Source: a virus
Taxonomy: Duplodnaviria; Heunggongvirae; Uroviricota; Caudoviricetes
DNA length: 9,795 nt
Reading direction: 5' to 3' (one strand)
IMG/VR virus record: IMGVR_UViG_2778261533_000002
Location: 1-9,795 of that record
In this document: positions 1-9,795 of the stretch, piece by piece
How the letters are laid out: the number at the start of each line of letters is the position of its first letter
Numbering within the stretch: position 1 is the stretch's first letter
The notes under the pieces: model-generated
Told to the model about the DNA's origin: nothing
What the model saw: only the letters and a program-made list of their open reading frames with translations
Database searches by the model: none
Position numbers and translations under genes: made by a program

Positions 1-235
1 CATGACAAGGTCATCGGGCATTATCTGAACATAAAACACTATCAGTAAGTTGGAGTCATTACCAAGCTATAGATGATAGAAAAATTGGAGCGGCAATGTA
101 TATATTTTCTAGCCATAATGGGTTTTCTACAATCAAGTATCCAAAAGGTATTAAGTATATTATAGCCAATAGTTGAAGGTTTTTTAATTTGGATGATGCG
201 TCAACCAACTTATTTTTATATTCCATACAACGTCC

Positions 236-1309
236 TTATTTCAACTTTAACGCCAAATCTTCAGCTTTTGGATGATAATACCGCATTAGCATTCTTGGAT
301 CTTTATGTCCTGTAATTTTGGTCAGTTCATGCATAGGGAAAATTTCAGCAAGTCGAGAAGTTGCTTCATGTCGAAGGTCATGAAATCTTAAATCTTTAAG
401 GAATGATTCATCACATAATGAGTTTGTTTTCTCGTATCGTTCTCTGGCTCGTTTTACAGCTCGGTCAAAAGCTCGGGTAATCGCGTCTGCACGCATATCA
501 AAAACCTTATCAGCAGCTGGCTTAGAATGTTCCTTGAGACTGGACAGTATCGTGATGGCTTTCGTTGATAAAGGGACATCGCGGGCATTACCATTCTTAG
601 TATCCGGCAGATGTGCAACTCGCCGATCAAGATCGATAAAGCGCCATCGAAGCTCTGCGATTTCGCTACGGCGCATGGCTGTCTCTAACGCCAGAAGAAT
701 GATTGCTGGCAATACTAATGAATGTGTTGCGGCGATGATATGTTCGATCTCGTTGGCTATTTCCTTTCCTGACGTAACACCGGTTTTCTCAGAAACTACA
801 GGCAGCGCTTCCAGGCGTCTGGTCCTGGAGTTCTTGGGTTGAGGTTTGCGAATGGCCTCTACGGGGTTCAGCAGGCTCTCCATGCCCCATTCTTTCCGCG
901 AAACGTTGAATACATGAGAAAGTAAGGCCAAACGCCTTAAAACGGTTGCAGGGGCATAGATTTTCAACCATTCATCTCTCAGCTTGGCGACATCGGCACT
1001 CCTGATGCTGGCCATATAGTTTTTCGCCAGCTGAGTGCCTTTTAGTATCCGCACCAATGATCGGTCTTGCACTGCCCCTTTTTTGTCGGGAACAATCTCT
1101 TTTTCATATCGCGTTAGGGCTTCATACAATGTCGTAGATTCCGCTTCGCTGCGGCTAAGCCAAACTCCTCTCGCCATTTCTGACTCGATCATTTTGGCCC
1201 AAGCTTCTGCTTCTACTTTGGTGTTAAAGGTTTTGGTTTGAGAGGGAAAACCTCGTTTACGGATTTGAGCTTCCCATTGGTAGTTACCACGTTTGCGTAT
1301 AGTCGCCAT
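236..1309 (-). CDS. Tyrosine-type site-specific integrase of element A
   Basis: Open frame 236-1339 on the minus strand. The track start at 1339 is TTG; the in-frame ATG at 1309 (MATIRKRGNYQWEAQIRKRG...) is the more likely start. C-terminal catalytic signature of tyrosine recombinases is present: RFHDLRHEATSRL and the tyrosine in MRYYH. Stop at 236-238. Confidence 0.85.
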   Translation of the reverse strand: MATIRKRGNYQWEAQIRKRGFPSQTKTFNTKVEAEAWAKMIESEMARGVWLSRSEAESTTLYEALTRYEKEIVPDKKGAVQDRSLVRILKGTQLAKNYMASIRSADVAKLRDEWLKIYAPATVLRRLALLSHVFNVSRKEWGMESLLNPVEAIRKPQPKNSRTRRLEALPVVSEKTGVTSGKEIANEIEHIIAATHSLVLPAIILLALETAMRRSEIAELRWRFIDLDRRVAHLPDTKNGNARDVPLSTKAITILSSLKEHSKPAADKVFDMRADAITRAFDRAVKRARERYEKTNSLCDESFLKDLRFHDLRHEATSRLAEIFPMHELTKITGHKDPRMLMRYYHPKAEDLALKLK

Positions 1310-1397
1310 TTCTGTCTGATTCCTAACGAACTGTGGCAATATTGTGGCAAAAAATCCATTTAAATTCGATAGGTATTGATTTTACAAGATCAATTTA

Positions 1398-1446
1398 CGC
1401 ATTCGTAATGCGAAGGTCGTAGGTTCGACTCCTATTATCGGCACCA
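1398..1446 (+). other. Attachment-site core: 3'-terminal 49 nt of a tRNA-Thr(CGU) gene (thrW-like), including the T-arm, acceptor 3' strand and CCA; not a complete tRNA
   Basis: CGCATTCGTAATGCGAAGGTCGTAGGTTCGACTCCTATTATCGGCACCA folds as anticodon stem-loop (anticodon CGT), variable loop, T-arm (TTCGACT loop) and acceptor 3' strand plus CCA. The upstream sequence does not supply an acceptor 5' strand or D-arm. Identity to E. coli thrW is recalled from memory. Confidence 0.8.
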
Positions 1447-1460
1447 TTTAAATCAATAAG

Positions 1461-2624
1461 TTACACATCATTAGTACCTTCCTTATTTTTTGACTGGGAC
1501 GAATTTGGGACCGATGGGTTCAGGATCGAGTCTATTTGCCGTGCGTGTTCGGTAAGGTGATTAGGTGCAAGGTGAGCATATCGACGAACCATTTCGATAG
1601 ACTCCCAGCCTCCCATTTCCTGTAACACTGACAACGGGACTCCGGCTTGAACCAGCCAACTTGCCCAGGTGTGTCTCAAGTCGTGAAATCTGAAATCATC
1701 AATACCAGCCCGTCTCAGCGCCGCTTTCCAGGCTGTGTTTGCGTCATACCGCATCTTCCTTACTGTTGGCGCTTTCGTTCCGTCTGGTTTGGTACAGCTT
1801 TCCTTGTACACAAATACCCAACGGTGATGATTCCCGATTTGTTTTTTCAAAACGCGACATGCAGTATCATTCAGCGCAACGCCAATTGCGCGGTTTGATT
1901 TACTCTCTTCCGGGTTTATCCATGCCACCCGGCGCTGCATGTCTATTTGTTGCCATTCAAGGTTGATGATGTTCGAGCGTCTTAAGCCTGTTGCCAGTGC
2001 AAATTCAACAACAGACTTTAATGGCTCCGGACATTCATCAATCAGCCTTTGTGCTTCATGGGGCTCCAGCCAGCGGATCCGTTTATTCTTTGGTTGAGGC
2101 ACTTTAATAATTGGTGCCTTATCCAGCATTTTCCATTCACGCTCTGCGGCTCTTAGTAGGGCCTTTATAAATGAAAGATGCGTAGCCTTCGTTGCAACGG
2201 ACGCTGGTTTTGGCGTGTATTCTGGAACAGGTTTCCCTTTTTTTCTGCATGCTTCTGCCCTGAGTCTCCAGTTTTCCTCATGACGCCGGTTCGTCATTTT
2301 CTGCATTGCTGAATAAATTTTTGATTCAGTAATGTCTCTTAGTTGCATTCCTGCGAAATGTTGAAGCCAGAATCCGATCCGGCTTTTGTCATCGTCCAGT
2401 GATTTTTTATGTGCTTTCTCTTCAAGCCACCTGACACACGCTTCCTCGAACGTTATATCAGGTATTTCACCAAGTTTGCTGACCCGCCATGCTTCAGCCT
2501 TTAGCTTGTCATGGAGTTCTGTCGCCTGCCTTTTGTCCTTTGTTCCAAGAGACTGTTTAAATCTTTTACCGTTCGGCAATGTGAAACTGGCGTACCATAT
2601 TTCACCTCTGCGGAAGAGTGACAT
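1461..2624 (-). CDS. int: Phage integrase, P22 Int-like tyrosine recombinase (387 aa)
   Basis: ATG at 2622-2624 ([14 protein letters not shown]...), stop at 1461-1463. Catalytic motifs [14 protein letters not shown] and VRRYAHL are present. Length and N-terminus match my recollection of P22 Int, which integrates at thrW. Confidence 0.9.
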
Positions 2625-2851
2625 TTTCTTTCCTCTGTTATGCCATCACCCGCGCTCACCTGGACAGTATGCAGCGGAGACTGAAGAGCCGCAATGCAGG
2701 CTTGTCGTGTTGTGAGGTAAGGAGATTTATTCTTAGTGGGATCTTTGCGTGTTGCCTGAAGACGCCCTGTGCGTATCCAGTTAATGGCAGTCGGTCTGGA
2801 TATCTTGAGAAAATGACAGGCCTCATCGAGTGTGAGGCTGTATGGCTCCAT
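2501..2851 (-). CDS. xis: Excisionase (Xis), 116 aa, helix-turn-helix
   Basis: The track ORF 2501-2935 is an upstream extension. The internal ATG at 2849-2851 ([31 protein letters not shown]...) gives a 116-aa product and overlaps the stop of the upstream gene by 1 nt (TAATG). The 3' end overlaps int by 124 nt in another frame. The position upstream of int and the HTH-like segment fit an excisionase. Confidence 0.75.
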
Positions 2852-3156
2852 TATTTCACCTCTTGCTGTGACATTGTTGAAAAATGGATACCAGCTCGTT
2901 GCTGCCAGACGATCCAACCGAGAGTCATATCCCATGCCATGTATTCGTTATCGCCGTTTTTTGCTCTCCGACGATCTACTAAGTTACCGAAACGCTTTTC
3001 CATGAATAATTCATAAGCTTCGCGTTCATCTGGTTCTACTTCCAGAGATAGGAGTGCGATTTCATAAGCACGGCGCTCAATATCGTCTCGCACGTCAAGG
3101 CTGCTGATACGCTCTTTAATTTCTTTAATCAGTTCTTTGTCGGTAAAAGTGGTCAT
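2851..3156 (-). CDS. Hypothetical phage early protein (101 aa)
   Basis: ATG at 3154-3156 overlaps the stop of the upstream gene by 1 nt (TAATG), and its own stop overlaps the xis start by 1 nt. Acidic, helical-looking sequence with no recognisable motif. Confidence 0.6.
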   Translation of the reverse strand: MTTFTDKELIKEIKERISSLDVRDDIERRAYEIALLSLEVEPDEREAYELFMEKRFGNLVDRRRAKNGDNEYMAWDMTLGWIVWQQRAGIHFSTMSQQEVK

Positions 3157-3518
3157 TATGCTCCAGCCTCCGGTGCTTTTGGCATTACTGCCCAGTGAGT
3201 GATATTGACGTTTTCAAGGTCCCCGACCTGAAATGTCCACTGCCATTCTCCGGTTTCTTTTTGTCCCCAGGTGTACCAGAGAGAACGCCAACCAATTAGC
3301 CAGCCTTCTCCGTTAGCATCGAATAACAAAACACTTTCATTTGCTGGTGGCAGTTCAGTTGACACTGGTATTACTTTGTTTTCCTGTGCTGCACATTTAG
3401 CTTCAAGCGCATCGAATTTACGCACCAGGTATTCAGCATCTGTTTCATTTACTTTCAGATCTCGCGGTACACATCTCCCACGAAGAAACCCTTCCATTTC
3501 GAAAACATTCATGCGCAT
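3156..3518 (-). CDS. DUF551-like phage protein (120 aa)
   Basis: ATG at 3516-3518 is preceded by GGAG at an appropriate distance. The C-terminal segment WQWTFQVGDLENVNITHWAVMPKAPE resembles the conserved THWMPLPEPP end of DUF551 proteins, as I recall the family. First gene of the leftward operon. Confidence 0.65.
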   Translation of the reverse strand: MRMNVFEMEGFLRGRCVPRDLKVNETDAEYLVRKFDALEAKCAAQENKVIPVSTELPPANESVLLFDANGEGWLIGWRSLWYTWGQKETGEWQWTFQVGDLENVNITHWAVMPKAPEAGA

Positions 3519-3973
3519 TTGCGTAACTCCGATAACTCGTTAAAGCGTTCCATAAACATCCCGTAACAGACAACAGGGCAGAGAACGGTGCTGTCTTTTT
3601 CAGTTTGAGAGTGGCGGTGTTAGTTTCTCCACAAAACAGAGAAGAACACCTGCGGTGGCAGCCGCCCGGATGGATTGGGTTATGAGCCCGTCGTCCGGTG
3701 ATGCTCTTCTCTGTTTTGTAAAAAGAGCGGTACCAGCCGGAAGCAAGTGTACAAACTGGTACCGCCAAAGCAGTGGCTGTTGTGGTGACCGGTGCTGATC
3801 TCCGGCTTGCGGTTATTTCAGACTCTCACGGGCGTTTAATTGCCCCGCCGAACAGCTCTTTTCCGCAATAGCTGCAATGTCTTTCGCGCATCAGTCTGCG
3901 CATTCACCACAACGCTGAGAGCACTTAGCCAGTTATCTATCCGAAAGATTAACAGAACACCTTCAATTTTTAA
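3519..3973. promoter_or_regulatory. Divergent control region between the leftward (int/xis) and rightward operons; contains two large inverted repeats and no ORF
   Basis: Imperfect palindrome with 18-bp arms (3631-3648 and 3702-3719, 17 of 18 complementary) separated by 53 bp. Immediately after, a perfect 10-bp inverted repeat GCGGTACCAG/CTGGTACCGC (3727-3736 and 3756-3765) with a 19-bp spacer. A hairpin followed by TTTTT lies at about 3566-3600. Promoter hexamers were not confidently assigned. Confidence 0.4.
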
Positions 3974-4057
3974 CCACAGAACGATGAGGCTAACCGCAAT
4001 GCGTCGAATGTTTATCAGCTTAACGTTGCGAAGCTTCAGGCAGCGGCATTTTCTCAA

Positions 4058-4212
4058 CTGTCAGATTCTGACCCGTCAAAATCTGACGCATCAAAATCTG
4101 ACCCGTCAAAATTTGATGCGTCGAAATCTGGCAAAAAAGCGGGTTTTCACCCGTCAGAATCTGGCGGGGATCCGTCAGTAAAATCAAAACATGATCCGTC
4201 AGATAAAAAACC
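4058..4212. repeat. Tandem 15-bp repeats, consensus cCGTCAAAATCTGAc: five contiguous units (4058-4132) plus three degenerate CCGTCAG-initiated copies (4151, 4172, 4196)
   Basis: Direct reading: ctgtcagattctgac / ccgtcaaaatctgac / gcatcaaaatctgac / ccgtcaaaatttgat / gcgtcgaaatctggc. The period is a multiple of 3 and sits in an open frame, where it encodes DPSKS/DASKS-type pentapeptides. Confidence 0.8.
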
Positions 4213-4330
4213 TTCTCGTCCGGACGCTTCGCAACCGGACACGCAGACGGCTGAACAGGATTTTTTAACTCGCCATCCTGATGCGGTTGTATTCAGCCCT
4301 AAAAAGCGCCAGTGGGGGACGCAGGATGAT

Positions 4331-4699
4331 TTGACCTGCGCACAGTGGCTCTGGAAAAAAATCATCGCCCTGTACGAGCAGGCTGCCGAATGTGACGGCG
4401 AGGTGGTTCGTCCCAAAGAACCGAACTGGACAGCCTGGGCAAACGAAATTCGCCTGATGTGTGTGCAGGATGGTCGTACTCACAAACAAATCTGCGAGAT
4501 GTACAGCCGCGTCAGCCGCGATCCGTTCTGGTGCCGTAACGTGCTCAGCCCGTCGAAGCTGCGGGAAAAATGGGATGAGCTTTCTCTGCGCTTATCGCCG
4601 TCCGTCAGCACGTACACAGAAAAACGCGAAGACCCGTACTTCAAAGCCAGTTACGACAATGTGGACTACAGCCAGATCCCGGCAGGATTCAGGGGGTGA
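4331..4699 (+). CDS. DnaT-like (primosomal protein I C-terminal domain-like) phage replication-associated protein; coordinates are from the first canonical start (TTG), but the frame is open from 3974
   Basis: The C-terminus ...DNVDYSQIPAGFRG matches the characteristic C-terminal end of E. coli DnaT (...SEPDSQIPPGFRG, from memory). Stop at 4697-4699, immediately before the SD (AGGGGG) and ATG of the next gene. The same frame is stop-free for 119 codons upstream (3974-4330) with no ATG/GTG/TTG, so the 5' extent is unresolved. Confidence 0.6.
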   Translation: MTCAQWLWKKIIALYEQAAECDGEVVRPKEPNWTAWANEIRLMCVQDGRTHKQICEMYSRVSRDPFWCRNVLSPSKLREKWDELSLRLSPSVSTYTEKREDPYFKASYDNVDYSQIPAGFRG

Positions 4700-4701
4700 G
4701 C

Positions 4702-5190
4702 ATGAGTCTTTTGAATGACGTTCAGAAATTCATTGAAGCCCATCCGGGCTGTACTTCCGGAGACATTGCGGATGCTTTTGCAGGTTACTCACGGCAGCGC
4801 GTTCTGCAGTCAGCAAGCAAGTTACGTCAGAGTGGGCGTGTGGCTCACCGTTGTGAAGGAGATACACACAGACATTTCCCGCGCCTGACTGAGAGAGCGC
4901 AGGATCCGGAACCACAACCAGTTCGTGAAACCAGACCTGTGCGCAATTTCTATGTCGGCACTAACGACCCGCGGGTGATTTTGTGCCTGACCCGCCAGGC
5001 GGAAGAACTGGAGTCCAGGGGCTTATACCGTCGTGCTGCAACGGTGTGGATGGCGGCATTCCGTGAAAGCCACTCCCAGCCAGAACGAAACAATTTTCTG
5101 GCGCGTCGTGAACGGTGTTTACGGAAAAGCAGTAAGCGGGCTGCATCAGGTGAAGAGTGGTATCTCTCAGGGAATTACGTGGGGGCTTAA
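4702..5190 (+). CDS. PerC-family-like transcriptional regulator with an N-terminal winged-helix-like region (162 aa)
   Basis: ATG at 4702 sits 5 nt after AGGGGG; the track GTG at 4696 is less likely. The C-terminal motif AEELESRGLYRRAATVWMAAF resembles the LE.GLWRRAA.RW core I recall for PerC/Pch proteins. Stop at 5188-5190 overlaps the next start (TAATG). Confidence 0.6.
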   Translation: MSLLNDVQKFIEAHPGCTSGDIADAFAGYSRQRVLQSASKLRQSGRVAHRCEGDTHRHFPRLTERAQDPEPQPVRETRPVRNFYVGTNDPRVILCLTRQAEELESRGLYRRAATVWMAAFRESHSQPERNNFLARRERCLRKSSKRAASGEEWYLSGNYVGA

Positions 5191-5843
5191 TGAGTAATAA
5201 ATATTGCCAGGCGCTGGCGGAACTGCGGAACAAACCAGCCCATGAACTGAAGGAAGTGGGCGATCAGTGGCGCACGCCGGACAACATTTTCTGGGGAATT
5301 AACACTCTGTTTGGCCCGTTTGTTCTGGATCTGTTTACTGACGGTGATAACGCCAAATGTGCTGCGTATTACACGGCGGAAGACAACGCGCTGGCGCATG
5401 ACTGGTCAGAACGCCTTGCGGAGCTTAAAGGTGCTGCCTTTGGTAATCCCCCATACAGCCGCGCCAGTCAGCATGAGGGGCAATACATCACCGGCATGCG
5501 TTACATCATGAAGCATGCCAGTGCCATGCGTGATAAAGGCGGGCGCTATGTTTTCCTGATCAAAGCTGCCACCAGCGAAGTGTGGTGGCCGGAAGATGCA
5601 GATCATATTGCTTTTATTCGCGGGCGTATTGGTTTTGAACTGCCTGCCTGGTTTATCCCGAAGGATGAGAAGCAGGTGCCGACAGGCGCTTTCTTCGCTG
5701 GTGCTATTGCTGTTTTCGACAAGACCTGGAAGGGACCGGCAATCAGCTACATCGGGCGCTATGAACTTGAGGCATGTGGTGAGGCCTTTCTGGCGCAGGT
5801 TCGCCAGCAGGCAGAAAAACTGGTCAGGGAGATGGCGGCATGA
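5190..5843 (+). CDS. Phage Dam-type DNA N6-adenine methyltransferase (217 aa)
   Basis: ATG at 5190 is preceded by GGGGG and overlaps the upstream stop; the track GTG at 5157 is less likely. Motifs [10 protein letters not shown] and FGNPPYS (catalytic NPPY) fit the small phage Dam family found in T1 and lambdoid nin regions. Stop at 5841-5843 overlaps the next ATG (ATGA). Confidence 0.75.
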
Positions 5844-6154
5844 CGACGTTAACTCAATGCCAGCAGCAGGTGCTGGATATGCTGATTTCTTATCAGAAAG
5901 AACGTGGCTTCCCGCCAACCAATCAGGAGGTGGCAACCATGCTGGGATGCATGGCCCGTCTGAAAAAGAACAACAGCGATTTGCACGATTTATTAGTAGA
6001 TTATTATGTAGGTGGTATGACGTTTATGGCGCTTGCCCGTAAACATGGGCGTTCTGATTGCTGGGTTGGGCGCTTATTGCAAAAGGCAGAAGGCATCATT
6101 GAAGGTATGTTGATAATGTTAGAAATAGAATTGGAAATGGACTCAAATATCTAG
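5840..6154 (+). CDS. Q-like late antiterminator (QuuD/21-type short Q) with an atypical LexA-like N-terminus (104 aa)
   Basis: ATGA-coupled to the MTase. The C-terminal two thirds ([35 protein letters not shown]...AEGIIEGML) resemble my recollection of the DLP12 QuuD antiterminator. The N-terminal 36 aa ([33 protein letters not shown]) instead resemble the LexA N-terminal DNA-binding helix pair. The last 20 codons lie in AT-rich sequence. Confidence 0.5.
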
Positions 6155-6281
6155 AAAGATATTTTATGAGTATCTGGATTTTTAATTTGTATTGTTAGCA
6201 TGAAATTAAGGAGGGTGGACTGTTTGTGCTTTATATTAATGTTTTTGTGGGGATTTAATAACCACTGATTTATTTGAGGGT

Positions 6282-6316
6282 GGCGCTAATGTACAAGGTT
6301 TTTAGTAATTAGCGCC
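6282..6316 (+). terminator. Possible intrinsic terminator or hairpin downstream of the Q-like gene
   Basis: Perfect 9-bp inverted repeat GGCGCTAAT/ATTAGCGCC with a 17-nt loop, followed on the plus strand by a U-rich tract (tgctggtttgttattttatttt). It lies 11 nt past the stop of the convergent minus-strand gene, but that strand has no U-run after it. Confidence 0.3.
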
Positions 6317-6326
6317 TGCTGGTTTG

Positions 6327-7778
6327 TTATTTTATTTTGCTTACTATATTTGTAATAAGTGGGTCAAATTTCTCATCAATAATTTCAATATATTTTTTAA
6401 TTGCTAAAGTTCTAATTACTTCCTCCTCACATTCTGCTTCTTTAGCAATTGCTTGAGTGTAATTGTGATGATCACTAATCCCTTCCTTTTTTATTAACCA
6501 ATCAAAATCAATATGATACTCCTTGTAGAGGAATTTTTTTACTTCCTCATGTTGAAATACTTCTACTTCTGGTGGCCTATTGCCAGGGAAAGAAAATAAA
6601 TCATCTTTAATGTTTTCTCCAACATCTGCATCTCTTACGGCAATAACATTAAGGCCTGCTTTCTTGAATACCTCGACTGCTTGTCGGACTGCATCTTTAT
6701 CTCCAATATCAGTGATTTGAATGGATTTAAGAATGTCTCTCCGCTTTGCTCTAATTACTTCACTAAGTAAAACTTTTGCAAACTGGTCTTCTACGCAAAT
6801 ATGCAGCCCTTTAAACTGCCCATCAGACAGTATTGATCTCACATGAGTTGTTGAAATTCCATCTTTGATATAGACACCAGTCTGATCTCTAATAAGTAAT
6901 TTTCGTGCATCAGGAGGTAAAGCATTTAATATCACACTTGAGTGTGTTGATAATATTATTTGATGTTTTCTACGTTGACATACTTCCATTAAATATTTTG
7001 CAAATTCATACTGTGCGCTTTCATGAAGAGATGTTTCTGGTTCTTCTAGTACGAAAAGACTTTGCTCTGGAGCTGTTTCAAGCATATCAACCGTATAAAG
7101 AACTCTTCCTTCGCCAAACCCCATGTTATTTTCAGAATAAGAATACCCAAGTCTTTCAACAATACCAATTTCTGAACGACGTGCTCTATGAGAAATTCCT
7201 TGGAATGCGATATCATCATATGGATGACCTATTATTTTTGCCATCTTCAATATTACTGAATGGTCGACGCTTCTTCTCTCTGTTAAATCAAAGTCTTTAC
7301 CGCCATAAACACTTATATCTCTACGTTCTACTTTTGGAATATAGACAGTAAAACCAATGTAAAAACAGTGTCTTTCTGGTTGTCTTTTATATCCAGACCA
7401 AGAAGACTTTATGCGAGTGACAGTCACATCTTGTGTTTTCGTTGAATCATTTGTTTCATATTTATAAATGACACTGGCGTCATTATCGAAAGGGGCTGGA
7501 TCGGCTTTAGATACAGGGAAAAAATCTTTAATATATAATCTCTTATATTCACGGGCTGTAACTGGTTTTTTATATGCGCATATTGCTAACTGCCCAAGAG
7601 TGCTTTTCCCAGCGCCGTTTAGCCCTGATATTGCAGTTACCGGAAAATTTATATTTAATGTTAGTTTTTTTATTCCTCGAAATCCATTTATCTCTAGACT
7701 TTTAATTACGGAGCCAAAGTTTGAGTATCTATTTTTATCAAAGTACATGCATTTTAGTATATTTTTTATGTCTGACAT
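6327..7778 (-). CDS. ABC-type ATPase fused to a Toprim-like nuclease domain; OLD/PARIS/Gabija-like candidate anti-phage defence protein (483 aa)
   Basis: ATG at 7776-7778 has AGGAAAG upstream and an in-frame TAA two codons before it. Walker A GLNGAGKST (about aa 52-60, read directly from the DNA as GGG CTA AAC GGC GCT GGG AAA AGC ACT). Walker B plus D-loop LFVLEEPETSLH (about 241-252). H-loop ILSTHS (about 275-280). C-terminal Toprim-like signature: CVEDQFAKVLL (Glu about 330) and, about 55 aa later, AVRDADVGE (DxDxG, about 383-387). Confidence 0.7.
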   Translation of the reverse strand: MSDIKNILKCMYFDKNRYSNFGSVIKSLEINGFRGIKKLTLNINFPVTAISGLNGAGKSTLGQLAICAYKKPVTAREYKRLYIKDFFPVSKADPAPFDNDASVIYKYETNDSTKTQDVTVTRIKSSWSGYKRQPERHCFYIGFTVYIPKVERRDISVYGGKDFDLTERRSVDHSVILKMAKIIGHPYDDIAFQGISHRARRSEIGIVERLGYSYSENNMGFGEGRVLYTVDMLETAPEQSLFVLEEPETSLHESAQYEFAKYLMEVCQRRKHQIILSTHSSVILNALPPDARKLLIRDQTGVYIKDGISTTHVRSILSDGQFKGLHICVEDQFAKVLLSEVIRAKRRDILKSIQITDIGDKDAVRQAVEVFKKAGLNVIAVRDADVGENIKDDLFSFPGNRPPEVEVFQHEEVKKFLYKEYHIDFDWLIKKEGISDHHNYTQAIAKEAECEEEVIRTLAIKKYIEIIDEKFDPLITNIVSKIK

Positions 7779-8043
7779 TTTTTATCTTTCCTGATATGAA
7801 TGAGAGTTATCTTTAGAAAAACAATAAATTTATAACATTTAGAGATGTATTCATCAATGATTGGGTAAATATCGTGCATTTGTTGTTTTAAAATCAACCA
7901 AGAATGATTTTTATAATTATGTCAATTGCCTTATTATCAATATGGTAATGTTTTCTCAATCTAATTATTGGGGGGGAATATATTATTTACAATCGTAAAT
8001 AATCAGATATGCTCTCAAGAGTGGTTACTTCGCCACACAACTT

Positions 8044-8069
8044 AAACCCGCCGTCGAGCGGGTTTTTTT
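8044..8069 (+). terminator. Rho-independent terminator (plus strand)
   Basis: aaacccgc-cgtcga-gcgggttt hairpin (GC core CCCGC/GCGGG) followed directly by a T run of 7 (8063-8069). It marks the right edge of the AT-rich island. Confidence 0.65.
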
Positions 8070-8191
8070 GTACCTGTAAACCTGGTGCAGTACGGTAAAC
8101 ACGCTGGTGGTCGTGAATACTGACTTTTTATCTTGCTGGCTTTTTAGACAAGAGTTATTGGTATGTCATGTTAACCAGAAGGAAAAAAGAC

Positions 8192-8386
8192 ATGTTAAAA
8201 CAGCAAGATATGACAGAAACGGCGAAAGTTGTTTTTAATGAATTAAGCATCGAACCGGCAACAGTCGGGGAGATTGCACAAAACACATATCTTTCACGCG
8301 AACGCTGTCAGTTAATACTGACCCAGTTGGTTATGGCGGGGCTGGCAGATTACCAGTTCGGCTGTTACAGACGCCTTCAGCTATGA
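8192..8386 (+). CDS. Small winged-helix DNA-binding protein (64 aa), possibly PapI/FaeA-like
   Basis: ATG at 8192 lies 8 nt after AGAAGGA; the track ATG at 8168 lacks an SD. The segment ATVGEIAQNTYLSRERCQLILTQLVMAGLA has the spacing of an HTH recognition helix followed by a wing, comparable to PapI as I recall it. Confidence 0.55.
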   Translation: MLKQQDMTETAKVVFNELSIEPATVGEIAQNTYLSRERCQLILTQLVMAGLADYQFGCYRRLQL

Positions 8387-8535
8387 AGGACTTTTAATTT
8401 GTGAAAATGGGCGGCTGGTGGGTGTTGGTAGCACCTGCCAGCCATTCGCTCATGCTTACTGGTCACAAGCGAACCACGGCCCACTGCTTTAGCGCAAAAG
8501 CAGAGTGAGCCTACCAGAGTTACGCTTACTGATCC

Positions 8536-9588
8536 ATGAAAAATACTGTAAAAATAAACAGTGTTGATTTAATCAACGCTGATTGCCTGCATTTTATTCA
8601 GTCCCTGCCTGATGATTCCATTGACCTGATTGTTACCGATCCGCCGTACTTCAAGGTGAAACCCAACGGTTGGGACAATCAGTGGAAAGGGGACGAAGAT
8701 TACCTTAAGTGGCTGGACCACTGTCTGGCCCAGTTCTGGCGGGTGTTGAAACCTGCCGGAAGCCTTTACCTGTTCTGTGGGCATCGCCTGGCATCTGATA
8801 TTGAGATCATGATGCGTGAACGTTTCAACGTGCTTAACCATATCATCTGGGCGAAGCCGTCCGGACGTTGGAATGGGTGTAATAAAGAAAGTCTGCGCGC
8901 ATATTTTCCTGCCACAGAGCGCGTTCTGTTTGCTGAACATTACCAGGGGCCATATCGCGGCAAAAGTGACGGCTATGCGGCAAAAGAAAGGGAACTCAAA
9001 CAGCACATAATGGCACCGCTGATATCGTATTTCAGGGATGCTCGTGCCGAACTGGGTATAACGGCAAAACAAATTGCCGAAGCCACAGGTAAGAAAAATA
9101 TGGTTTCCCACTGGTTTGGTGCCAGTCAGTGGCAGTTGCCGAATGAGGCTGACTATCGGAAGTTACAGGCACTGTTTTCCCGTATAGCGGCAGAGAAGTT
9201 TCAGGAACAACAACTGGAACAACCACACCACCAGCTGGTGGCATCTTATGATTCACTGAATCGCAAATATTCTGAATTGCTGGATGAGTTTAAATCTCTC
9301 CGGCGCTATTTCTCCGTATCAGTCTCCGTGCCTTATACCGATGTCTGGATGCATAAACCCGTTCAGTTCTACCCGGGTAAACATCCGTGTGAGAAACCGG
9401 CGGATATGCTCAGGCAAATAATCAATGCCAGTAGTCGACCTGGTGATCTGGTTGCTGATTTTTTTATGGGATCCGGTTCCACAATAAAAGCAGCAATGGC
9501 GCTGGGGCGTCGGGCCTTAGGTGTTGAGCTTGAGTCAGAGCGGTTTAACCAGACAGTGAAAGAGATAAACGAGCTGGTGGGGAAATAA
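8536..9588 (+). CDS. DNA methyltransferase, beta-class N6-adenine/N4-cytosine type (motif IV before motif I), 350 aa; no cognate endonuclease in the window
   Basis: N-terminal [12 protein letters not shown] (catalytic DPPY) and C-terminal [17 protein letters not shown] (AdoMet-binding FxGxG). The central target-recognition region contains an HTH-like segment ([12 protein letters not shown]). A GATC sits immediately 5' of the ATG. Confidence 0.85.
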
Positions 9589-9594
9589 TCTGGT

Positions 9595-9620
9595 GGCCAC
9601 GTCAGGTGGCCTTTTTATTT
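9595..9620 (+). terminator. Rho-independent terminator after the MTase, in the position of a late-region tR'-like terminator upstream of the holin start
   Basis: ggccac-gtcag-gtggcc hairpin (9595-9611) followed by TTTTTATTT (9612-9620), 7 nt after the MTase stop and 36 nt before the holin-like ATG. Confidence 0.65.
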
Positions 9621-9655
9621 CCATTACACAGCACCCGCATCTGCGAGGTGGGGTT

Positions 9656-9784
9656 ATGAAATCCATGGATAAGTTAACAACGGGTGTCGCCTATGGCACC
9701 TCAGCAGGTAGTGCCGGGTACTGGTTTTTACAGTTTGAACCGTCCCGGGAATCCTGGAGACTAAACTCCCTGAGAAAGAGGTAA
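9656..9784 (+). pseudogene. N-terminal remnant of an S21/EssD-type pinholin (dual-start MKSM motif and first transmembrane/SAR segment only)
   Basis: ATG at 9656 is preceded by [33 protein letters not shown] matches the first 26 residues of phage 21 S as I recall them. The frame then diverges ([16 protein letters not shown]) and stops at 9782-9784, and no frame in the remaining window encodes a second TMD. A new RBS-ATG (AAAGAGG, ATG at 9789) follows. Confidence 0.45.
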
Positions 9785-9795
9785 ACAGGATGACT

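Follow-up and report, generated by a model that had tools for sequence, protein, structure and literature searches.

The 9,795-nucleotide stretch of DNA analysed here, hereafter the window (IMG/VR virus record IMGVR_UViG_2778261533_000002, positions 1 to 9,795), is a defective lambdoid prophage of Escherichia coli of the CPS-53/yfd-like kind, and it carries a gene for a DNA adenine methyltransferase (MTase) predicted to belong to the M.EcoGII family. We show that positions 8401-8535 of the plus strand constitute a cis-acting structured 5' leader of the MTase mRNA, that the leader RNA can take two mutually exclusive folds through a swap of partners among six strands, and that it represents a conserved RNA family without a match in Rfam, carried by temperate phages of the Gammaproteobacteria. 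The leader is very probably regulatory for the MTase, and we favour the reading, to which we give a probability of about 0.6, that it is a two-state translational gate on a toxic late gene.

Structure and alternative folds of the leader

A sequence-only reading of the window had proposed that a long structured leader with two hairpins precedes the MTase gene, and inverted repeats, covariation and folding energy all bear this out. Both hairpins (8413-8424/8432-8443 and 8484-8493/8494-8503) are present, and they are helices P2 and P4 of a larger structure in which a three-way junction (P1-P3) is followed by hairpins P4 and P5 and preceded by a further hairpin, P0 (Table 1). The gap between the upstream open reading frame (ORF) and the MTase gene (8387-8535) folds more stably than shuffled sequences on the plus strand (z = -3.2, with 1 of 200 shuffles as good). 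A minus-strand RNA was rejected, given its weaker folding (z = -2.5) and the frequent G-U pairs, which are consistent with the plus strand only.

The two folds draw on the same strands. In the first, which we call ON, P1 (UGGGC:GCCCA), P3 and P5 form the three-way junction plus hairpins, and the MTase start region is single-stranded. In the second, OFF, UGGGC pairs with the 5' strand of P3, and GCCCA pairs with GUGAGCC (8505-8511) in a helix, ALT1, that extends P4 by its flanks (GGCCCAC, 8478-8484, with GUGAGCC) and excludes P1. The freed 3' strand of P3, with its invariant G(G/A)UCA, then pairs within the translation initiation region (TIR), with a 12-nt stretch just ahead of the ATG. The sequence concerned, the anti-TIR (GGUCACAAGCG, 8461-8471), makes up the apical and 3' part of P3 and includes the invariant UCA.

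These helices were examined in 80 loci gathered via the MTase, with one genome per species, whose upstream 140 nt were aligned from Escherichia to Serratia, Gilliamella and Vibrio. In a structure-blind MAFFT alignment of 66 leaders 81% of the cells pair, against 29-50% in slid controls; 19 pairs show double-sided changes, and none of 500 shuffles reaches the observed values. A covariance-model alignment gives 88.8%, and the most diverse alignment, of 82 leaders, gives 83.4% (32-46% slid), with compensatory changes at 30 of 36 pairs in 384 cells. On these sequence comparisons the structure of the leader is far beyond chance. Moreover, leaders are still 82-88% identical between loci whose neighbouring small ORFs have reached synonymous saturation (dS 1.5-2).

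The strands that define the two states behave accordingly in the alignments. The invariant pentamers of P1 pair in every cell (100%), and compensatory change has arisen there twice independently (G-C to A-U in locus L034, C-G to G-C in L081). For the OFF fold, the helix AUGGGC:GCUCAU pairs in 94.5% of cells (33-51% slid) and ALT1 in 91.4%, the outer pair of ALT1 having changed from G-C to A-U in 10 sequences. For the anti-TIR:TIR duplex the figure is 86.6% (14-45% slid); 36 cells carry double changes, no shuffle out of 500 does as well, and the duplex beats shuffles in 49 of 55 unique leaders, with a median z of -3.2.

The complementarity to the start site takes a different form in different lineages. 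In the enteric (GGUCA-CA-AGCG:CGCU-UAC-UGAUC), Proteus (GAUCA-C-GGA:UCC-UGAUC) and Morganella (GAUC-A-CGG:CCG-GAUC) leaders the target is a region just 5' of the AUG that lacks a Shine-Dalgarno (SD) sequence. In Vibrio the pairing GUCAUAAG:CUUAUGAC lies over the AUG of com, and the target is the start codon itself; in the groups with Mom, C5-MTase or ParB-MTase genes, and in Gilliamella, (G/A)GUCAU(G):(C)AUGAC(C/U) likewise lies over the AUG, and the genes begin AUGAC(C/U). At the MTase start in the window there is no canonical SD: the core anti-SD duplex amounts to -2.4 kcal/mol, or to -4.9 kcal/mol through a weak pairing of UGAUC with GAUCA at the 3' end of 16S rRNA. The leader thus combines two features of riboswitch-type leaders, a covarying structured 5' domain and an exclusive pairing that masks the ribosome-binding site (RBS) or start codon.

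For the window, the predicted energies of ON and OFF differ by no more than about 1.5 kcal/mol, at -56.9 versus -56.5 kcal/mol for 8395-8560 and -55.4 versus -56.9 kcal/mol for the leader plus 20 nt. When the transcript is lengthened step by step, the minimum-energy fold is ON-type with ends at 8485, 8505 and 8530 and OFF-type at 8476, 8512 and 8522, and it turns OFF at 8538, when the start region is complete. Among 71 leaders OFF is usually the minimum-energy fold, with ON a median of 3.8 kcal/mol higher. Across lineages, single-sequence minimum-energy folds repeatedly differed from the fold supported by covariation.

Searches of Rfam 15 gave no relevant match in the whole window (E <= 1), in 8360-8560 (E <= 10) or in six Vibrio-type loci, and a literature search found no described leader for M.EcoGII, Mom homologues or the Q-stx region. 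Three further elements of the gap were considered and dropped: a hairpin AUCAG:CUGAU that would mask UGAUC has no covariation support, a 5' GUGA:UCAC pseudoknot is consistent across lineages only in part, and the direct repeat GCTTACTGGTC/GCTTACTGATC (8454/8524) is lineage-specific and not a feature of the family.

In most enteric and Vibrio-type leaders the triplet that immediately precedes the A-run before AUGGGCG, at 8401-8403 in the window, could serve as a start codon. It is GUG in most, UUG in L005, L034 and L091 and AUG in Vibrio, and it lies about 9-10 nt after the GGAGG-like 3' arm of P0; the reading frame that follows is not conserved. The leaders linked to Mom and ParB-MTase genes (UUAGAAAUGGG, GGGAAAGAUGGG, CGGAGAAUGGG) do not have such a triplet. 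It may mark a very short leader ORF or a ribosome stand-by site.

Table 1. Features of the leader, its module and the module borders in the window
Feature	Position	Strand	Basis
Structured mRNA leader, about 135 nt	8401..8535	+	Covariance model R1 matches 8401-8538, 146.6 bits
P1, long-range UGGGC (8408-8412):GCCCA (8479-8483), closes the three-way junction	8408..8483	+	RNAalifold
P2, hairpin 8413-8424/8432-8443	8413..8443	+	Inverted repeat I6; double-sided changes at 8 of 10 modelled pairs (alignment A6)
P3, hairpin 8445-8454/8464-8473	8445..8473	+	Covariation in 5 of 6 basal pairs
P4, hairpin	8484..8503	+	Inverted repeat I10; 6 of 6 modelled pairs covary
P5, AGUGAGC (8504-8510):GCUUACU (8524-8530), hairpin of the ON fold	8504..8530	+	Single-sequence centroid fold; compensatory changes at 7 of 7 pairs
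MTase translation initiation region (TIR)	8523..8538	+	CGCUUACUGAUC (8523-8534) is the anti-TIR target; ATG at 8536
M.EcoGII-family DNA adenine MTase (predicted), 350 aa, regulated gene	8536..9588	+	Pfam N6_N4_Mtase, E 2e-42
P0, terminator-like hairpin (8374-8389) and U-rich tail	8374..8400	+	Terminator-like prediction; encloses the stop codon of the small ORF (8384-8386)
Small winged-helix gene, 64 aa, accessory late gene	8192..8386	+	ORF and SD, AlphaFold2 model, dN/dS, homologues
Intrinsic terminator, upstream edge of the module	8044..8071	+	8-bp GC-rich stem, then T-run; terminator annotated at the same place in SfV and Ayreon
Intrinsic terminator closing the module, just before the P21-type holin	9595..9620	+	Predicted; terminator annotated in SfV and Ayreon

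The RNA family and the genes that follow it

Related leaders occur in more than 230 phage and prophage loci of the Enterobacterales, Vibrio and Gilliamella. A first pattern scan of IMG/VR returned 120 loci; there were 191 leader instances overall, and an MTase gene lies downstream in all 189 that have enough downstream DNA. A relaxed scan returned 46 further loci, in which the leader precedes a Mom-family gene (17 loci; PF25680, E 9e-72), an M.EcoGII-like MTase gene (8), a C5 cytosine MTase gene (5; PF00145), a Com-like zinc-ribbon ORF and then an MTase gene (4), a gene for a ParB-domain MTase (3) or, directly, a holin gene (8). The RNA core precedes several enzyme families and is therefore not bound to any one enzyme; it is a portable leader of DNA-modification genes in phages. 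The Com-like ORF is found only in Vibrio-type relatives, where its match to Zn_ribbon_Com is sub-threshold (E 0.0065); the window has no such ORF upstream of its MTase gene. In the loci examined a terminator-type hairpin stands immediately before the leader, at the head of the late or lysis region.

The MTase of the window has the motif order of the beta class, TDPPYF followed by FFMGSGST (DPPY...FxGxG), and the N6_N4_Mtase match spans residues 29-341; a PDB sequence search returned distant beta-class MTases only. Its identity to the enzyme of phage 1720a-02 is 81%, and that MTase has been called very similar to M.EcoGII, a prophage-borne, sequence-non-specific adenine MTase that is silent in the lysogen and harmful when expressed constitutively (PMC5778455). 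Its motif order, its length of about 350 aa and its location on a prophage, with the 1720a-02 enzyme as the link, point to membership of the M.EcoGII family. Tight control of the MTase gene is to be expected because M.EcoGII is non-specific, silent in the lysogen and damaging to the cell.

A second conserved RNA-like motif (GCCUUGAGUACCUGAGACC, a loop, GGAGAGGAAGC) lies upstream of the MTase homologues of Vibrio, Aliivibrio and Psychromonas. It was seen at L079 2175-2225, L078 2140-2190 and L091 2130-2195, and also in L080, L082-L086, L088, L090 and L092-L094, and it gave no match in Rfam. In some loci it is found in tandem, before the leader; elsewhere it occurs by itself, downstream of a LexA-box-like CTGT-N8-ACAG and a promoter, with a hairpin and a complementary GUAUUCAAGGCUCU after it.

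Proposed mechanism and its alternatives

In the two-state gate that we propose, the OFF fold, which is the ground state in most members, would mask the start region and block translation, and formation of the junction in the ON fold would leave the start region free. Together with the flanking terminators and the dependence on Q antitermination, such a gate would keep the non-specific methylase silent in the lysogen and limit it to late lytic growth. The ON fold might be favoured by a small ligand or host factor acting at the conserved junction, or by the kinetics of co-transcriptional folding, for example with Q-modified RNA polymerase. The downstream enzymes are unrelated, which makes autoregulation improbable, and the small ORF is not a universal trigger because many loci do not have it. 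With both set aside, a common ligand or host factor and folding kinetics remain, possibly tied to the Q-modified polymerase. A tentative extension, which we regard as possible and would not lean on, is that the leader is a new class of phage RNA sensor, a single three-way-junction aptamer shared by M.EcoGII-type MTases, Mom, C5-MTases and ParB-MTases, in which a common signal (a metabolite, a host factor or the Q-modified polymerase) licenses translation in lytic growth only.

Several points weigh against the gate. Both the translational effect and the assignment of ON and OFF are predictions from sequence comparison and modelling. P1 is nearly invariant, and its covariation consists of the two compensatory events given above; the shuffle statistics, moreover, overstate independence, since the sequences are phylogenetically related. 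In Hafnia L008 and L043, which are of the enteric type, the anti-TIR pairing is not significant and ON is the fold of lowest energy. In 8 of the 45 second-scan loci the leader is followed by extra hairpins and then by a holin gene with a good SD, with no obvious start-site pairing, so the element may serve a role independent of the start site that follows it. Finally, the module of the window prophage itself may never be expressed, because Q appears to be a deletion fusion there (see below).

Two alternatives concern what sets the state of the RNA. The three-way junction could be a true riboswitch aptamer, with a small molecule or host factor stabilising P1 and P3 and thereby freeing the start site, and we think this conceivable, albeit rather unlikely. 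Its unpaired nucleotides (AAUGGGCG, CAU, UCA, AACCAAGGCCCA) hardly vary between Enterobacterales, Vibrio and Gilliamella, and an alternative helix competes for the 3' strand of P1, as in the expression platform of a classic riboswitch. The median 3.8 kcal/mol by which ON lies above OFF could be bridged by ligand binding, and the presence of the same core before unrelated enzymes favours a common signal over enzyme autoregulation. No ligand is evident, however, and the downstream enzymes have no co-substrate in common: the MTases use S-adenosylmethionine, and adenine hypermodification is described as tRNA-dependent in the title of a 2026 paper (PMC13219725). Much of the invariance is already explained by the need of each strand to fit two pairing partners, and no known riboswitch class in Rfam matches the leader.

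The other alternative is purely kinetic control, to which we attach a similarly limited weight. The ON junction would form first and give a brief window for ribosome loading, after which the OFF fold would cap the protein made per transcript; polymerase speed or Q modification could matter. The leader of the MS2 maturation gene and the hok mRNA are precedents for kinetic leaders. The growing transcript fits such a course in that its minimum-energy fold is ON-type as late as 8530 and OFF only once the start region is complete, albeit with OFF-type intermediates between. The position of the element after a terminator-type hairpin at the late or lysis head, where it is read by Q-modified polymerase in annotated phages, fits as well. 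Minimum-energy folds of truncated RNAs are nevertheless a crude proxy for co-transcriptional folding, and kinetics alone do not explain the invariant nucleotides of the junction.

A third possibility brings in the small ORF upstream, which the sequence-only reading had described as a winged-helix gene, perhaps of PapI/FaeA or controller type. The 64-aa ORF and the 149-nt gap after it (8387-8535) are as described (ATG at 8192, TGA ending at 8386), and the AlphaFold2 model is indeed a winged helix (H1-S1-H2-H3-wing, pLDDT 90.8). An SD, AAGGA, lies 8 nt upstream of the start (anti-SD dG -5.7), the start is identical in the annotations of SfV (orf47) and E. coli ATCC 43886, and a dN/dS of about 0.06 against homologues indicates a real gene under purifying selection. 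Its homologues fall into 318 clusters, the best 120 of which come from E. coli, Shigella, Salmonella, Klebsiella, Citrobacter, Buttiauxella and other Enterobacterales, and since it has no promoter of its own it is regarded as a late gene. The suggested kinship with PapI/FaeA was not supported, as a profile search with the protein (hmmscan, Pfam, E <= 0.1) gave no FaeA match. Its Pfam matches, to DprA_WH (0.005), TrmB (0.008) and MarR_2 (0.026), are all below cut-off (15-17 bits against cut-offs of 23-27), and public annotation names it 'TrmB family'. Foldseek returned generic winged-helix matches only, the best to IclR N-domains (TM 0.84); other close folds are the dimerisation domains of O-methyltransferases, MarR/OhrR and the RNA-binding winged helix of SelB.

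That this protein is a dedicated regulator of the MTase, controller- or Com-like and binding the leader as DNA or RNA, seems to us unlikely. It is true that the ORF lies upstream of 156 of 188 leader-MTase modules (83%) and is under strong purifying selection, that the winged-helix fold has RNA-binding relatives (SelB on SECIS RNA, TM 0.77), that the stop codon of the ORF lies inside P0, and that small proteins do go with the module in the Vibrio relatives, where the Com-like zinc-ribbon gene stands between RNA and MTase. The remaining 32 modules (17%), however, do not have the ORF, and their leader is unchanged and equally conserved. In DNA searches the gap accompanies the MTase of phages Eeyore and LLS despite the absence of the small ORF, and it is recognisable in Morganella, Providencia and Hafnia phages in which the ORF is undetectable at the DNA level. 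Conversely, the ORF occurs without the MTase in phiSTEC1575-Stx2k (L009 2501-2808) and PhiR5_1 (L010 2501-2782), and the expected conservation of the two genes together thus holds for the majority of modules but is not universal. Directly upstream of the RNA in those Mom, C5-MTase and ParB-MTase loci that were sampled there is a terminator or the 3' end of a tRNA, and not an ORF stop, the small ORF not having been formally searched for in this set. A promoter or operator for the protein in the gap was considered and rejected, as there is no sigma70-like site and there are no convincing repeats; indeed no sigma70-like promoter was found on the plus strand in 8014-9795. Nor is the arrangement that of a controller protein: the small protein has no XRE-type fold and no HTH_3 match, and no restriction endonuclease gene is linked to the MTase gene in the window, SfV, phiP27 or Ayreon, its downstream neighbours there being a terminator and holin or tRNAs and stx. 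The small ORF is dispensable for the module and for the RNA element.

A hairpin equivalent to P0 lies directly before the leader in most of the examined loci without the small ORF, and where the ORF is present its stop codon falls inside the predicted hairpin in 67 of 72 unique junctions. A ribosome terminating there would oppose the formation of P0, and could couple translation of the ORF to read-through into the leader. The homology of phiSTEC1575-Stx2k and PhiR5_1 ends inside the leader, at the equivalents of about 8454 and 8425 in the window respectively, and other genes replace the MTase; the leader is thus a boundary of recombination or deletion in some Stx phages. In a Vibrio plasmid or phage a 98-aa ORF (L079 1791-2087, +) that aligns weakly with the small winged-helix protein (22% identity) lies upstream of a promoter-like TTGCAA-17-TATAAA, a terminator and the two RNA motifs, and could be a remote equivalent of the small ORF.

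Less probable again is that the element acts on transcription or RNA fate, as a terminator-insulator, as a processive antitermination RNA of the put type or as an element for RNase processing or stability. A terminator-like hairpin does precede it in the loci examined, the eight loci directly before holins, where start-site pairing is lacking, would suit such a role, and the long perfect P2 could be a substrate for RNase III. There is, however, no U-tract after P1-P5, the annotated phages have Q antiterminators, and complementarity to downstream start sites that is specific to each lineage would not be predicted.

The sequence-only reading had also drawn attention to a GATC beside the MTase start and to a methylation-sensitive switch that might act there. 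The site is real, at 8531-8534, one base (C8535) before ATG 8536, and is near-invariant in enteric relatives (A134, T135 and C136 at least 90%). It is absent from the Hafnia, L043, Vibrio and Gilliamella relatives; leaders in which the start codon has become the pairing target do not have it. No sigma70-like promoter lies near it, and it is part of the UGAUC:G(G/A)UCA pairing. The GATC is explained by this RNA pairing and not by Dam control. Despite a GATC conserved in most enteric relatives and a Dam-type MTase encoded upstream (5157-5843), a PapI-like switch is therefore most improbable, the gap holding a single GATC as against the paired sites in the promoter-regulatory region of pap-type switches, and the same goes for a small protein-coding gene in the gap, where a 33-codon ORF readable from ATG 8406 was rejected because loop indels break its frame, which stops after 7 codons in Eeyore.

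Prophage setting and comparison with known systems

The module that carries the leader (terminator, small ORF, leader, MTase, terminator) is mobile. In all the annotated phages examined (SfV, phiP27, Ayreon and others) it has the Q antiterminator on one side and the lysis cassette, or the tRNAs and stx, on the other, and intrinsic terminators flank it at both ends. Positions 8000-8700 are 98-99% identical to Shigella phage SfV (orf47/orf48), with the homology starting at the upstream terminator, and about 81-84% identical to the Stx2e phage phiP27 (L23/L24), and this stretch was found in 1432 of 5426 complete E. coli genomes. In the window the gene order runs from a LexA-N::Q-C fusion ORF (5840-6154) through a minus-strand nuclease gene (6327-7778) and the module to a P21-type holin gene (Pfam match); the prophage cargo includes two integrases, a PerC/YfdN homologue and the Dam-type MTase already mentioned. 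ARAGORN found no tRNA or tmRNA genes in the window.

The fusion ORF (+, 104 aa) joins a LexA_DNA_bind N-terminus (residues 1-36) to part of a phage-82-type Q, namely its C-terminal half (Pfam positions 53-118 of 118). Genes for RusA, KilA-N and DUF968 separate the LexA-family gene from Q in E. coli ATCC 43886 (L004 5229-8156). A deletion of about 2.6 kb seems to have fused the two in the window prophage, and has probably inactivated Q. The nuclease gene encodes a 483-aa AAA_15/AAA_21 'ATP-dependent nuclease' (OLD/AbiEii-like); it is AT-rich, lies in the opposite orientation between Q and the module, and looks like a defence-type moron, its site in SfV and Ayreon being occupied by other genes or none. 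A cluster of short repeats at 4059-4133 (+), with units such as TGACNCNTCAAAATC, gave a spurious Rfam miRNA match and appears in an ORF translation as repeated LTRQN motifs; the repeats look like iterons of a replication origin. Two tandem tyrosine-integrase genes (236-2624, -) flank a 3' tRNA fragment (1372-1439, +; 22 bits to the Rfam tRNA model, not called by ARAGORN), suggesting that two elements have integrated in series at one tRNA attachment site.

M.EcoGII, Mom and other DNA-modification enzymes give phages a major weapon against restriction and damage the host if mistimed, and apart from Mu com-mom the way in which they are silenced is largely unexplained. If the gate proposed here is correct, one RNA before four unrelated enzyme families would amount to a portable, shared control cassette. 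It would help to explain the silence of M.EcoGI and M.EcoGII in lysogens, and it would be a candidate RNA switch in E. coli phages, the Stx-converting ones included. The leader could also aid the annotation of DNA-modification genes in late regions, and the expression and taming of M.EcoGII, a widely used reagent.

Among known systems, the phase variation controlled by PapI/FaeA and Dam shares with the locus a small winged-helix protein and a nearby GATC, but here there is no FaeA-family match, a single GATC, no promoter and the context of a phage late operon. Controller proteins of restriction-modification systems are XRE-type helix-turn-helix proteins that bind C-boxes and time the expression of the endonuclease. 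The likeness to them lies in a small gene of DNA-binding type immediately upstream of a methylase gene, and the differences in the winged-helix fold, the absence of an endonuclease gene and the dispensability of the ORF for the module. The MS2 maturation gene and hok mRNA are comparable in that translation may need a transient fold and the final minimum-energy structure blocks the start site; there is no homology to them in sequence or structure, and the kinetic behaviour of the present leader is that of a model.

Translational riboswitches and other bistable leaders resemble it in their junction, closed by a P1 that lends its 3' strand to an alternative helix, in an anti-RBS that pairs with the start region and in two states of nearly equal energy. 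The leader differs from such riboswitches in having no known ligand or Rfam class, and in that its anti-RBS lies inside the aptamer-like domain, in the 3' strand of P3, and not in a separate platform. The com-mom system of Mu offers a parallel in two respects: a toxic late phage gene for DNA modification has its start site masked by mRNA structure, and members of the leader family precede Mom-family genes, those of Vibrio carrying a Com-like zinc-ribbon ORF. In Mu, the Com protein opens a small hairpin, and Dam/OxyR and C control the promoter. The leader described here, with no com gene in the window, is by contrast a three-way-junction RNA of about 135 nt with a full alternative fold, and it is conserved across unrelated enzymes.

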